Shown: positions 5,080 to 11,157, counted from the first letter of the stretch. The stretch is DNA of 13,223 nt from Candidatus Heimdallarchaeota archaeon B3_Heim (GCA_003144275.1 NJBF01000066.1:1-13223); one strand, 5' to 3'. A program made the numbers and translations. The notes: generated by a model from the letters alone, not told the origin.

Positions 5080-6594
5080 TTAGTCAATATTATTGGGAAG
5101 TTTAATAGTAAAAATACATCCAGTGTTTTCTTCACCGCTAACAACCTCAATGGTGCCTCCATGGGCTTGAATGATAGCTTTTATAATATAAAGACCCAAA
5201 CCAGTTCCACTCTGAGAATATTGGGTTGGTTTATGAGCGAAAGGTCGGAATAATTGAAGCATACCATCATTAGAAATCCCTGTTCCTTGATCTTGAACGA
5301 CTATGGACAATTCGTCAGATTTACTGAGAATTCGAATATTAATCGATGAATCTTCAGGTGAATTTTTCACAGAATTCTGCGTTAAATTTTCAACAGTTTG
5401 TTTGATTCTTTCACTATCCAGGTTAAACGATAAATTTGAGTCTGAAGTGACATTAGTATCCCAGAATATATTTCGAGTTGGAAAGAGAATCGCAATTTGA
5501 TCTTTTATTTCATTAATGAACTCAAATAAGTTTACATCTTTACGATCAATGGTAAATAGATTCGCTCGGACGGCGGATAGATCATGTACATTTCTAACTA
5601 ATCTCACAAGTCGATTTACATTACGAGACATTTTCTCAATAATAGCAAGGAGATCTTCTTGAGAAAGATCAGGGCCAATTTGTAAAACGTCAATGTAGCC
5701 ACTTAGGACAGTTAATGGAGTTTGAAGTTCATGGGCAGTTGTGGCAATAAAACGTTCTTGCAACTCCTGAAGTGATTTTTCTTGTGTGATATCCGAGATA
5801 ACACAAAAATTTCCAACTACTTGATTATCTGGATCAGTTAGTGAGGATAGAATTAACCTTGTCTCTACTTCCACACCCGATTTATTCAAGAAAGTAATTT
5901 CAGTGGGGTTTGAAGTTGATTGAGTATCTAAAGAGAGTAAAACTTTGTTAAATTTGTCGTGAGATGTTTCAACCATAAAATCAGTAATTTTATTGCCAAT
6001 GAGCTCACTTTCTGAAAATCTTAACATTTCACATAACGCTTTGTTGATGAAAATTGTTTCTTGAGAGGAATCAAAAAGCCAAGCTCCGTCACCCATTTGA
6101 GTAATTAACTTTCTAAATTTATGTTCACTTTCACGAAGAGCTTTCATCATACCTTCGTATTTCTTCTCAACATACATAATTTTTTTAGCAGTTTTTTCAT
6201 CATTTGATTGATACTTGATGATTGTGGTCACTAAATTAGGATTTTTGGTCTTAATCATTGGTAATTTGTGAATAGTATAGGCAGTGGGATCCTTAGGGAA
6301 GGTATCAACGCTTTCGATCTGTGATTCTTGGGAATTAAAGATCTTTTTGTAATCTGCTATCCAAGTGTTGGTTAAGAAAGGGATAGCCTCTGTAATATGT
6401 TGATCTTTACCTGGGGGTGGTAATTCCCAACTATTCATCAAACGTACTAGTGCTTCATTATAAAACTGGATTTTCAAATGAGTATCTACTACAAAGATTG
6501 GGTCTGAGATTAAACTAAATGCCTGAAAAAGTGGCCTAGTTTTACTTACATCAATTTGTCTGATGTCAGTATTTGTAGTTATAATCTTAGGCAT
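5080..6594 (-). CDS. Soluble PAS-PAS-HisKA-HATPase sensor histidine kinase (504 aa), paralog of 1743..3191
   Basis: H-box AHELQTPL (His288, 5731-5733); N-box ENLTQNSVKN; G1 DQGTGI; LFRPF; G2 GTGLGL; motif-by-motif similarity to the first kinase. Confidence 0.93.
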   Translation of the reverse strand: MPKIITTNTDIRQIDVSKTRPLFQAFSLISDPIFVVDTHLKIQFYNEALVRLMNSWELPPPGKDQHITEAIPFLTNTWIADYKKIFNSQESQIESVDTFPKDPTAYTIHKLPMIKTKNPNLVTTIIKYQSNDEKTAKKIMYVEKKYEGMMKALRESEHKFRKLITQMGDGAWLFDSSQETIFINKALCEMLRFSESELIGNKITDFMVETSHDKFNKVLLSLDTQSTSNPTEITFLNKSGVEVETRLILSSLTDPDNQVVGNFCVISDITQEKSLQELQERFIATTAHELQTPLTVLSGYIDVLQIGPDLSQEDLLAIIEKMSRNVNRLVRLVRNVHDLSAVRANLFTIDRKDVNLFEFINEIKDQIAILFPTRNIFWDTNVTSDSNLSFNLDSERIKQTVENLTQNSVKNSPEDSSINIRILSKSDELSIVVQDQGTGISNDGMLQLFRPFAHKPTQYSQSGTGLGLYIIKAIIQAHGGTIEVVSGEENTGCIFTIKLPNNID

Positions 6595-6716: not shown

Positions 6717-7829
6717 TTATTTTTGTATATTTACCATAGCGTTCTTAGTAGCATGAAGGGGTTCATCCACCATATATTCTTGAGATGCTTTCCATTTTTC
6801 ACTTGTGAAATCAAAATTTTCTGGATAAAAACAATAAAGCATAGACCCCTGTGTTTTTGTATCAAGTACATGGATTTTTAAGTTAGGGATATTTTGCCAG
6901 CAAGCATAGGTAAAATCAGAGGCTTGTCCTGGACTCATCGTTATCCAAATGAGAATTTTATTGTCTTTTAGTATGTCAAGAGACAGGAAGAAAGGAGGTG
7001 CATCCTTTTTTATACCATTATACAATCGTGCTTGTCTAAGGAGATCAACTTCTGACCCAAAAGCAATAATTGTTTCAGTAAGGTCAAAAATCTTTCTATC
7101 ATACATAAATCTAATTGCCCCGACATATTTCTCTTTCACAATTGGATATTCAGTCTCGACTACTTCTCTATTTAGGCCTGTCTTGTCACTAAGTTCGTCT
7201 ATTGATAGTGAGGCATTCTCTGTTAAAACTTCAAGGATTTTACCTTGGGCAGGTGTAAATTCTGAGAGATTTCTTCTTGTCTCTAAAGGAGATGGTAGAC
7301 GTGGAGGATCTACTTCAAGGGTTGCGAACCAAATTGGCCAAATAAAACTCCAACTTGATGTCCCCGCGTTATATTTCTCTAGATTTGGATAGGATTCAGT
7401 TCTAACTCCGTTACTTTCTGAAATTTCAAACGAAGTAATTATTTTCTTTTCTACCAACGTTTCAAATAACATCTCAATATATTTTCTTGTACCAATCGGA
7501 ATATCAAACTGAATAAATACCCCAATATTTCCCCCAAAAATTCTTGTCCTAAAGTGTGTATAAGGATGAGCAGTACATAATTCTTCCATCACTTCCAAGC
7601 AAGAATGATCGGGAAGAACTGTAATAACATGAATACGTTGTAAACCTAAAGATTCAGGATTAAAGATTGCGACCGGATTTTTAATGACCCCTTTCGCTTT
7701 CAAAAGATCATATCTTTCAGTTGCTTCAGATTCTGGGACTTTAATTTGGCGAGAGAGCTCACTTATCGACATGAAAGGGTTCTGATTTAGCGCTAAAAGG
7801 ATCGCAAAATCTTCAAATTTGAGCTCCAT
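6717..7829 (-). CDS. Tandem (internally duplicated) Lrp/AsnC-type transcriptional regulator (370 aa)
   Basis: Two HTH segments: DFAILLALNQNPFMSISELSRQI and QGKILEVLTENASLSIDELSDKTG. Each half ends in a similar motif (YPNLEKYNAGTSSW / YPENFDFTSEKW). Confidence 0.8.
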   Translation of the reverse strand: MELKFEDFAILLALNQNPFMSISELSRQIKVPESEATERYDLLKAKGVIKNPVAIFNPESLGLQRIHVITVLPDHSCLEVMEELCTAHPYTHFRTRIFGGNIGVFIQFDIPIGTRKYIEMLFETLVEKKIITSFEISESNGVRTESYPNLEKYNAGTSSWSFIWPIWFATLEVDPPRLPSPLETRRNLSEFTPAQGKILEVLTENASLSIDELSDKTGLNREVVETEYPIVKEKYVGAIRFMYDRKIFDLTETIIAFGSEVDLLRQARLYNGIKKDAPPFFLSLDILKDNKILIWITMSPGQASDFTYACWQNIPNLKIHVLDTKTQGSMLYCFYPENFDFTSEKWKASQEYMVDEPLHATKNAMVNIQK

Positions 7830-8074: not shown

Positions 8075-9676
8075 TTATTCGAGTCTATCCAGATGTCTAA
8101 CTCCAATGTAGAGGAATATAAGACCTAAAGTCATAGCAAAAATAACCACGATACCCATTATGTAATAGAAAGAGTCGATAATGCGGAATGTATCGTATAG
8201 AAATTGATCCAAAACTATTAGGCCAAAGAAAAATGGGATCATGATTAAAAATATGATGACTTGCATATTGACCATATATTCTGGAGCTTTATCGTGAAAT
8301 GCTGGATTACGTAGAAATAAACCAGTGGAAAACAGGGTTAAACTTGTAGCCATAATTACCTGAAAGATCATATTGAAAAGAAGCTCATGTAGTTGAATAT
8401 TTGGAACTAGGAGAGAAACAACTCCTCCTATTACGACTGCTATGGGAAGGATGATTAAGAAATAATGACCTAACTTGCCTTTCACAAAGGAAAAAGTAGT
8501 TGTCGGAGTGTGTTTGTATAACAGTAAGCTATCTTTTCCCTGTAAACCAATTTCTCCTGCAACAAAAGCAGCTAAAAGAGGAGTAATCATGATTGTACTA
8601 ACTATCGCACTTTCTACATCTTCAGGCTGCATAAGAAAGATATTCATTGCTGCTACCAGTGCAATGACGTACAAGAGCATTGTCAAGTTTCTGACCGTAC
8701 GAGTGTATCCTTTCCAGCTAGCAGTAACCAATACTGCAAATGATCCATTACCAAGTAATTTAGACAAGAATCGATAAAACATTCTATCTGGTTTAGCTTT
8801 GGCCGCTGAGAATGATTTTAATTCAAGGCTATATAATCGATTAGCAAATACTATTCCTGTGATAAAAACGACAATAGTAAAGGTGATCAGTAAGATTACT
8901 TGAATGGAAGTTGTAGGATTAATTCCAGTTAGATTACCTGGTGATCGAGCAAATTCAATAATGATTTCTGCACCCCAGGAACTCGGGAAAAACTTTAACA
9001 AGTCTCCAAACCATTTGCTCTTTTCTGGGTCAAGAAGAAAATCAAAGTAGCCACCCAGCGCGGCATACATAAGAACAACTAAAGGAATGATTATTAAAAA
9101 GGCCACACCCTTACCAATATCACGGCCTCTAGCATTTTTCATGAGAAATGATCTGACAAGCACCGCTGTGACATTACCAATCCAAGTGGACGTTAAAAAA
9201 GTAAGAATGAATATTCCGAGAATAATTAGTACTTGAATCACACTTATGCCTAATGGAATCAATGCAATAGTGAAAAAACTTCCAATAATTATGGCGAAAG
9301 TTGCATAAAAAGGCATTTTACCAAGAAATTCTCCAAAGAGAAGATTTCCAGGACTGATGGGAGTAGAAAACAAATTTTCAAAATGATGATCTCGAATATC
9401 TTGGAGTATACTCATCATGGGTAATACAAAGAATATTAAGGAGCAAAAGAACAGTATAAACTGGACTAGAACAACTGCAACAAGGGAAAATAAGTATTTA
9501 TCCATTTCTGAAAGTAGTGACTCTGCTAGTGAGGGTCCCAAGTAAAAAATCCAGAAAATTAACCCCCCACCAAGAATAAAAGGGAGAATTGGACGGAATT
9601 GTCTAAAGCGGCTCGTTATCATGCGATAATCAGCTTTAGCAACAGTCCACCATTGAAACGAGATCATTCTGATCAT
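8075..9676 (-). CDS. ABC exporter permease, about 12 TM, two ABC-2-like halves (533 aa)
   Basis: About 12 hydrophobic segments; repeated cytoplasmic motif LFSTPISPGNLLFGEFLG / LYKHTPTTTFSFVKGKLG; directly downstream of an ABC ATPase. Confidence 0.85.
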   Translation of the reverse strand: MIRMISFQWWTVAKADYRMITSRFRQFRPILPFILGGGLIFWIFYLGPSLAESLLSEMDKYLFSLVAVVLVQFILFFCSLIFFVLPMMSILQDIRDHHFENLFSTPISPGNLLFGEFLGKMPFYATFAIIIGSFFTIALIPLGISVIQVLIILGIFILTFLTSTWIGNVTAVLVRSFLMKNARGRDIGKGVAFLIIIPLVVLMYAALGGYFDFLLDPEKSKWFGDLLKFFPSSWGAEIIIEFARSPGNLTGINPTTSIQVILLITFTIVVFITGIVFANRLYSLELKSFSAAKAKPDRMFYRFLSKLLGNGSFAVLVTASWKGYTRTVRNLTMLLYVIALVAAMNIFLMQPEDVESAIVSTIMITPLLAAFVAGEIGLQGKDSLLLYKHTPTTTFSFVKGKLGHYFLIILPIAVVIGGVVSLLVPNIQLHELLFNMIFQVIMATSLTLFSTGLFLRNPAFHDKAPEYMVNMQVIIFLIMIPFFFGLIVLDQFLYDTFRIIDSFYYIMGIVVIFAMTLGLIFLYIGVRHLDRLE

Positions 9677-10464
9677 GCCCTCCAGGGGGATATACTTGAA
9701 CTAGGGACTCCACCAGTAATTGCGATAAATGCCTCTTCAAGTGTACGTGTTTGAGTCTGATCTTTGATATCTGAAATTGTTCCTAGCGCTATTAACTATC
9801 CATTGTGGATAATACCAATCCTGTCACATAATTCGTCAACAACTGAAAGTCTGTGGCTACTGACAAGAATTGTTTTTCCACGGTTTGACATATCTTTGAC
9901 TAATTGTTTAACAGTACGCGCAGCTCGTGGATCAAGACCTGCAGTAGGTTCATCCAAAAAGATCACCTCTGGATCATGGATAATGGCAGAGGCTAATAAT
10001 ACTTTTTGACGCATACCTGTGCTAAATCCTTCTATAAGATCATTTTGTCTATCTAAAAGATCAAAGAAAGTCAATAATTCATTTATGCGCATTTTTAACT
10101 CAGATTTGTGAATGCCGTAAAGAGAACCCATGAACTCGAGAAACTCATAAGCTGAAAGTTTTGCATAGACTCCAGGCGATTCGGCAAGGAGGCCAGATAT
10201 TGATTTTACTTGTTGAGAATCTGTGAGGATATCATATCCATTTATATTGGCTGTACCATTTGTTGGTTTGATAAGCCCATTTAACAAGCGAAGTGTGGTC
10301 GTTTTTCCAGCGCCATTAGGTCCAAGTAATCCGAAGGTTTCTCCTTGATTAATAGTTAAGCATAGATCGTCAACCGCTCTTATTTTTCCTTTCGAATAAA
10401 ATTTAGAAAGATTAGTTATTTGTATTAAACCGTTTGACCTATTTGATGTTTTTTCTGTTTTCAT
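9673..10464 (-). CDS. ABC transporter ATP-binding protein (263 codons) interrupted by one in-frame TAG at 9796-9798
   Basis: Walker A GPNGAGKT, signature FSTGMRQK, Walker B IFLDEP, H-loop SSH; GGTGA SD upstream. After IIHNG-TAG the frame continues LIALGTISDIKDQTQTRTLEEAFIAITGG...PWRA-TGA, and that TGA overlaps the permease ATG (ATGA, 9673-9676). Confidence 0.88.
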
Positions 10465-10489: not shown

Positions 10490-10882
10490 TTATTTTAATC
10501 GTGACCCACAAGTAGCGCAAAAAAAATCTGATCGATCGACCAATGAACCACAATTGAGACAATATTCGTATTTATTTTGAGGTTGATTTTCCCAAGTGGG
10601 TTGTAACGATTGGGATGGTCGTGAAACGTATCTAACTTGTTTTCCTGTATCAGAACTGGTTTGTTTTGACTCTAGAAATACAAACATAGGAATAAAGGAT
10701 GCAATGAAGATAATAATTCCTAGAACAACAAAAACCATATTGAAAGACATTCCGTTTAATAACGGAAATGCAACTAAGGCTAACGTCAGAAATAACAGAA
10801 GAAAGCTGCTAACAATGAAAGCAATTAAATTCGGTTTCTGACCTTTCTGACTAGGAGGGATATAAGGGATGATAGGTATCAT
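10490..10882 (-). CDS. Two-TM membrane protein with a C-terminal zinc ribbon (~130 aa; alternative TTG start at 10936)
   Basis: Two hydrophobic segments, S/Q/P-rich linker, YCLNCG-x8-CATCG. The ATG at 10882 is preceded by GGTG; 25-nt gap to the ABC ATPase start. Confidence 0.8.
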   Translation of the reverse strand: MIPIIPYIPPSQKGQKPNLIAFIVSSFLLLFLTLALVAFPLLNGMSFNMVFVVLGIIIFIASFIPMFVFLESKQTSSDTGKQVRYVSRPSQSLQPTWENQPQNKYEYCLNCGSLVDRSDFFCATCGSRLK

Positions 10883-11157
10883 TAATTTTACACCAATTTC
10901 ATTTTTTGTAGGTTGATGATTGACATTATTTGTCAATTACTATATTTTGGTAACATGTTTAAATATTCTTCGATTGTGGAAAAAATCCCCGAAATGGACT
11001 GTCACTACTTATTTGTCGAAAAGTCAAAGATTTTAACTGTAATCCATAAGAAATTTGTACCTTTCGCTCAAATAATGATACTCTTGGAGAATTTGGCTAG
11101 TAAATTGCACAAATGATTCAATGTTATGATATTTAGATATTTCATCTCACCAGAAGG

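Follow-up and report, generated by a model that had tools for sequence, protein, structure and literature searches.

The in-frame amber codon that interrupts an ABC transporter ATPase gene of a Heimdall-group archaeon (Hodarchaeales) is probably a very recent single-base change from CAG to TAG, a genuine nonsense allele or else an error of the consensus, rather than programmed recoding. The window, that is, the whole stretch of 13,223 nucleotides analysed here, is contig C72 of the metagenome-derived assembly G000 (3.95 Mb in 103 contigs, 94% complete, 36% G+C), which encodes five Heimdall-CTERM domains above cut-off. The closest public relatives of the ATPase gene lie in metagenome-assembled genomes (MAGs) labelled Candidatus Heimdallarchaeota or Hodarchaeota. 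Translation of the ATPase frame gives 222 residues, the TAG, 40 further residues that read LIALGT...LEEAFIAIT...SPWRA, and a TGA at 9673-9675, which shares bases with the permease ATG at 9674-9676 (Table 1). An earlier, sequence-only reading of this DNA had described an amber codon inside a 263-codon ATPase frame, with 40 open codons, the LEEAFIAIT motif and an ATGA overlap with the permease start behind it, and the translation bears out each of these elements.

Table 1. Features of the transporter locus; positions are counted from the first letter of the window.
Feature	Position	Strand	Basis or remark
ABC transporter ATP-binding protein gene (DrrA/ABC-2-like)	9673..10464	-	with the TAG read through, 263 codons and a TGA
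In-frame TAG, codon 223, 19 codons past the H-loop His (SSH)	9796..9798	-	translation
Post-TAG tail: 40 open codons plus TGA; last beta-strand and C-terminal helix of the ATPase domain	9673..9795	-	
ABC-2-type permease, 533 codons, intact	8075..9676	-	ATG overlaps the ATPase TGA (ATGA)
GGAGGG, 1 base 5' of the permease ATG, Shine-Dalgarno-like	9678..9683	-	read from sequence; putative function
148-codon ORF with C-terminal zinc ribbon, upstream of the ATPase, context only	10490..10936	-	Pfam Zn_ribbon_3

The interrupted gene is a member of the ABC nucleotide-binding domain family, as indicated by a match to Pfam ABC_tran (PF00005) at 98.3 bits against a cut-off of 25 and by the motifs GPNGAGKTT, FSTGMRQK, VIFLDEP and SSH in its translation. 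Walker A, the Q-loop, the signature, Walker B and the H-loop are all located upstream of the TAG. Its best NCBIfam match is TIGR01188 drrA at 262.8 bits, which does not reach the subfamily cut-off of 312.45, and drrA is the nearest named subfamily only. The nearest solved structures in the PDB alignment are the nucleotide-binding domains of ABCA1, ABCA4 and ABCA3 and the Thermotoga protein 1vpl. Both the NCBIfam and the PDB alignments cross codon 223 and extend to residues 239-250. The locus thus resembles a DrrA/ABC-2 (type V) exporter in its best profile and in the ATGA pairing of ATPase and permease, whereas it differs in the score (263 versus 312 bits) and in the length of the permease, for which Pfam ABC2_membrane_3 gives only a weak match below its cut-off (28.7 bits). 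Compared with its counterpart in the closest species, G013, the permease has no stop in the first 501 codons compared. The zinc-ribbon match of the upstream ORF is likewise below cut-off (22.9 bits), and this ORF has no NCBIfam match.

Orthologues of the ATPase from 20 genomes of the genus (59-91% identity) are all open over their full length, none being truncated. Together with the profile alignments across codon 223, this indicates that the gene evolved as a 263-codon frame, as had been proposed, and that the tail is coding sequence, not a chance open frame. At the orthologous codon, G013 (91% identical protein) and G020 (88%) have CAG and G018 and G003 have CAA, so that the four closest species have Gln at this position. 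This comparison with sister genomes, one of the checks suggested beforehand, does not sustain the description of the site as Lys-like: the more distant orthologues mostly have Arg, and Glu and Lys occur in one each. Contigs from two other marine-sediment metagenomes, which are 97% identical across 330 bases and 92% identical across 462 bases over the TAG site, read G at plus-strand position 9798, corresponding to CAG. The four sequencing runs compared with the site come from related strains only, and in a search for the source run of the assembly none contained more than 9% of the sampled words. The ancestral codon 223 is CAG, one of the three one-change precursors named earlier (AAG, CAG or GAG), and TAG is one C-to-T transition away from it. 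The CAG in these contigs and the Gln in the four closest species show that the TAG is private to the G000 assembly and recent.

Consistent with a recent event, the 40-codon tail is free of decay. It is identical to that of G013 at 36 of 40 residues; three codon differences are synonymous and four non-synonymous, and there is neither a frameshift nor a second stop. The ratio of non-synonymous to synonymous differences in this comparison is 4:3 in the tail and 19:40 in the upstream part, numbers of sites too small to interpret. The site therefore combines a sense codon in the relatives, a single step to the stop, restriction to one assembly and an undecayed frame, as for a recent nonsense allele or consensus error. 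In its origin by one change from the sense codon of the relatives and its confinement to one assembly, it resembles an ordinary nonsense allele or a young pseudogene of a MAG; it differs in that the ATPase shows no further decay and in that the ancestral residue is the one that a CUA tRNA encoded by G000 (see below) would insert.

Under the standard code, translation would end at residue 222, 19 residues past the H-loop histidine, and the product would keep Walker A, the signature, Walker B and the H-loop but lack the final strand and the C-terminal helix. Coupling to the permease through the ATGA would be lost as well, with ribosomes stopping 120 bases short of the permease start, while the GGAGGG upstream of that start may still permit independent, uncoupled initiation. 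We infer that ATPase function is lost and that the stop is not read through. A deliberate truncation, in which this lineage would use the 222-residue protein as its functional ATPase, is very improbable. Every catalytic motif does precede the TAG; however, the tail is no less conserved than the remainder of the gene and has the conserved ATGA overlap at its end, no truncated orthologue was found among those compared, and strains 97% identical at the site have CAG.

Pyrrolysine had been put forward as one possible reading, with a PylRS/tRNA-Pyl system inserting it at a Lys-like site as in methanogens and one Asgard class. This idea draws on the in-frame TAG itself, on the Lys or Arg that distant ABC ATPases have at the position of codon 223, and on the report of a Pyl system in one Asgard class, a system whose loss that study infers on the branch to Heimdallarchaeia (bioRxiv 10.1101/2021.02.19.431964). 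The same study describes 'tRNA-Pyl' calls that are orphans, made in Loki- and Thorarchaeia without Pyl genes. The genomes examined here speak strongly against pyrrolysine. The best match to PylS (TIGR02367) in G000 scores 28 bits against a cut-off of 178, and a PylS match at E<=1e-10 is missing from all 22 genomes of the genus, of which three are single-contig, while the Methanosarcina control was positive. PylB and PylD are likewise absent from G000, where the best scores are 23 bits (cut-off 348) and 22 bits (cut-off 150), respectively. The single MttB-family gene of G000 runs through 481 codons uninterrupted by any stop, that is, it is not a TAG-bearing methylamine methyltransferase gene. 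A tRNA-Pyl is characterized by a 6-bp anticodon stem, a 3-nt variable loop, a short D loop and the lack of T-psi-C. By comparison, the only CUA tRNA found in G000 is of the Gln type: its anticodon stem is 5 bp long, its D loop has 9 nt and its variable loop 4 nt, and its T-loop reads TTCGAAT. The ATPase gene therefore shares with Pyl decoding (pylTSBCD) a UAG within the frame of a gene that is otherwise intact, but G000 is without PylS, PylB, PylD and tRNA-Pyl, the gene does not encode a methylamine methyltransferase, the ancestral residue is Gln, and TAG is a common stop in this genome. Pyrrolysine at this TAG has next to no probability and is refuted as far as genome data allow; the codon is no argument for pyrrolysine in Heimdall-group archaea and should not be used as one.

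An intergenic tRNA gene of G000 (C10:37765-37873; L027:201-309) bears on a different kind of read-through. ARAGORN, run with introns allowed, labels it 'tRNA-Pyl(cta)', but its acceptor stem AGCCCCG/CGGGGCT, with A1-U72, is that of the intronless tRNA-Gln(CUG) and tRNA-Gln(UUG) of the same genome, and it has a normal D arm and a 36-nt intron. Full-length orthologues are present in 17 genomes of the genus (L029-L045). The anticodon loop is C/TTCTGG (CUG, G37) in 11 of the 17 genomes and TTCTAT (CUA, U37) in the other six, namely G000, G013, G020, G003, G018 and G004. Exon sequence hardly varies among the orthologues, the intron diverging rapidly, and compensatory changes are found in the anticodon stem (GAGAG/CTCTC, AAGAG/CTCTT, GAGGA/TTCTC and others), in the T stem and in the 4-bp central helix of the bulge-helix-bulge motif (TTCT/AGAA, TTCT/GGAA, CTCT/GGAG). 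The nearly invariant exons and compensatory changes indicate that the gene is under selection. The bulge-helix-bulge, with the central helix TTCT/AGAA and ATA bulges, places the intron between positions 37 and 38, and the mature anticodon predicted from this conserved motif is CUA. An alternative with two stacked introns, which would yield CUG, is unlikely, since the second intron would have to differ inconsistently in length among the six genomes. Judged from its gene, this is a tRNA with a Gln body that descends from tRNA-Gln(CUG), its predicted anticodon having changed from CUG to CUA. Since intronless tRNA-Gln(CUG) and tRNA-Gln(UUG) are also encoded, the intron-bearing copy was free to change. 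The presence of GatD in G000 indicates that an indirect Gln pathway exists, and the genome encodes one aRF1, with NIRS and YVCDNRF. The Rfam tRNA model gave the unspliced gene no score, and a literature search found no report of tRNA-Gln(CUA) or of amber suppression in Asgard archaea. A second ARAGORN call in G000, 'tRNA-Stop(tta)' at C80:40050-40150 (L028:202-302), was rejected: it is a tRNA-Lys(UUU), scored at 58.5 bits by the Rfam tRNA model, whose 27-28-nt intron had been misplaced by one base.

Stop-codon statistics show TAG in normal use as a stop. It terminates 21% of the 2655-3008 genes called in G000, and in-frame extensions of at least 30 codons follow 16.2% of TAG, 16.3% of TAA and 17.3% of TGA stops. 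In G000, the extensions behind TAG exceed those behind TAA and TGA neither in length nor in coding character, and back-up stops after TAG are not in excess relative to TAA and TGA. The TAG share of stops is 21.4% and 19.7% in genomes of the CUA clade versus 15.6% in one genome of the CUG clade. No genome-wide sign of amber suppression was found in TAG usage, extensions or back-up stops.

We further counted lone stops, defined as internal stops with conserved flanks, by comparing 1.445 Mb (~45%) of G013 with G000 in both directions (~1000 orthologue pairs, 317,000 aligned codons). G000 has six lone TAA (two from TTA, two from GAA, one each from TCA and AAA), two lone TAG (codon 223 of the ATPase and a TTG-to-TAG change at C14:20158) and one lone TGA, from CGA. 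G013 has no lone TAA, two lone TAG, both from CAG, and one lone TGA, from GGA. By comparison with the closest species, about 1% of G000 genes thus have a lone in-frame stop, and frameshift-like junctions number seven in each of the two genomes among the ~1000 genes. Because lone stops of the other kinds occur in G000, an ordinary nonsense allele or consensus error is sufficient for the ATPase TAG; being mostly TAA, these stops are beyond the reach of any amber suppressor. The ATPase TAG is in this respect like an ordinary nonsense allele, in a genome where lone stops of all three kinds and frameshifts affect about 1% of genes, a rate that also serves as a warning about the assembly. A wider census, covering ~45% of G013, 380 kb of G009 and ~150 kb of other relatives, revealed no further in-frame TAG in G000, and G020 has one lone TAG at a Tyr (TAT) column. 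Among Gln-to-stop changes in the two-genome census, three are CAG-to-TAG and none is CAA-to-TAA, although CAA is 2.6 times commoner than CAG (8076 versus 3144); the binomial p of ~0.02 is post hoc and rests on small numbers.

Several details of the census are recorded here. The lone TAA of G000 include C7:20267 (TTA), C10:46694 and C82:93614 (both GAA) and C14:16149 (TCA), and its lone TGA is at C43:63378 (CGA). Lone stops in G000 are mostly TAA and mostly transversions, and G013 has about one third as many. The two lone TAGs of G013, L102:5211 and L135:11268, fall on CAG (Gln) columns of orthologues that are 98% and 92% identical; neither is conserved in other species, both being private to G013. 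In the same genome, a lone in-frame TGA (L073:1667) occupies a GGA (Gly) column of a 202-residue protein with both flanks conserved. Two candidates were discarded: the TAG at C7:27252, aligned with GAG, is part of a frameshift junction rather than a lone substitution and was dropped from the count, and the TAG first scored inside an ABC paralogue of G020 lies just 5' of the start ATG and is not internal.

Set against a nonsense allele or consensus error is the possibility that a real CAG-to-TAG change is tolerated through leaky or regulated read-through, with the clade-specific tRNA-Gln(CUA) inserting Gln and restoring both the ATPase and its coupling to the permease. We consider this unlikely, though the best of the alternatives. 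On this reading the tRNA is a redundant intron-bearing copy of tRNA-Gln(CUG) that turned CUA, as in supE, and would be charged through a non-discriminating GluRS and GatDE. The conservation of the Gln-type CUA gene in G000 and five sister species argues for such read-through, as do the redundant tRNA-Gln copies and GatD. Moreover, since the ancestral residue is Gln, the wild-type protein would be recovered if a CUA tRNA charged with Gln read the codon, and three of the five lone in-frame TAGs in CUA-clade genomes are on CAG Gln columns, with no CAA-to-TAA change. The remaining two, however, are on Leu (TTG) and Tyr (TAT) columns, each in-frame TAG is private to one genome, and lone TAA outnumber lone TAG in G000. 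The TAG share of stops is not lowered in the CUA clade and back-up stops are not enriched. The tRNA itself also has features that weigh against decoding, namely the failure of the unspliced gene to score with the Rfam model and its U37, a base unusual at this position in a decoding tRNA.

Of the two explanations that the sequence-only reading had placed beside a nonsense allele or base-call error, pyrrolysine fails on the genomic evidence, whereas the amber suppressor fares better in one part: a conserved CUA tRNA is indeed encoded in G000, so a suppressor is not refuted, but functional read-through is unsupported. Its ranking of nonsense allele and base-call error as at least level with both is upheld. 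That reading had also held that a genome with no CUA tRNA and no other internal TAG would leave only an error or a pseudogene allele; G000 has both the CUA tRNA and the lone TAG at C14:20158.

The closest known parallels of the tRNA are suppressors of the supE type. supE is E. coli glnV44, a tRNA-Gln in which CUG has changed to CUA, and ciliates have tRNA-Gln(CUA/UUA). As predicted from its gene, the tRNA described here is likewise Gln-bodied, arose by a CUG-to-CUA change in a redundant copy, and would insert Gln at UAG. Unlike these, it is natural, intron-bearing, kept in six archaeal species and has U37, and UAG is still a common stop. It is tentatively conceivable, and rather less than probable, that a six-species subclade of Hodarchaeales keeps a natural supE-like tRNA-Gln(CUA) whose low or regulated reading of UAG buffers CAG-to-TAG mutations while UAG still serves as a normal stop. 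If so, the ATPase would still be made at full length with its ancestral Gln. Hodarchaeales are the archaeal order nearest to eukaryotes, and amber suppression by a chromosomal tRNA in this order would, if true, represent a new state of the genetic code with an ambiguous UAG. Taken alone, the TAG at codon 223 is of an ordinary kind, whether a recent nonsense mutation or an error of the assembly. Its interest comes only through the tRNA-Gln(CUA) of the clade, for which it offers a natural UAG at a Gln column and hence a test site for read-through.

The transporter locus and its surroundings yielded further observations. Relatives of the ATPase at 59-63% identity are found in MAGs labelled Bathyarchaeota, Methanomassiliicoccales, Hadarchaeota, Theionarchaea and Thermococci (L204-L232). 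They are as close as the distant members of the same genus, which suggests that the transporter operon moves between sediment archaea. Downstream of the transporter and on the same strand, the window encodes a 370-residue protein with an N-terminal winged-helix (AsnC/MarR-like) domain (6717-7829, minus strand) and a PAS-domain histidine kinase of 504 residues (5080-6594, minus strand).
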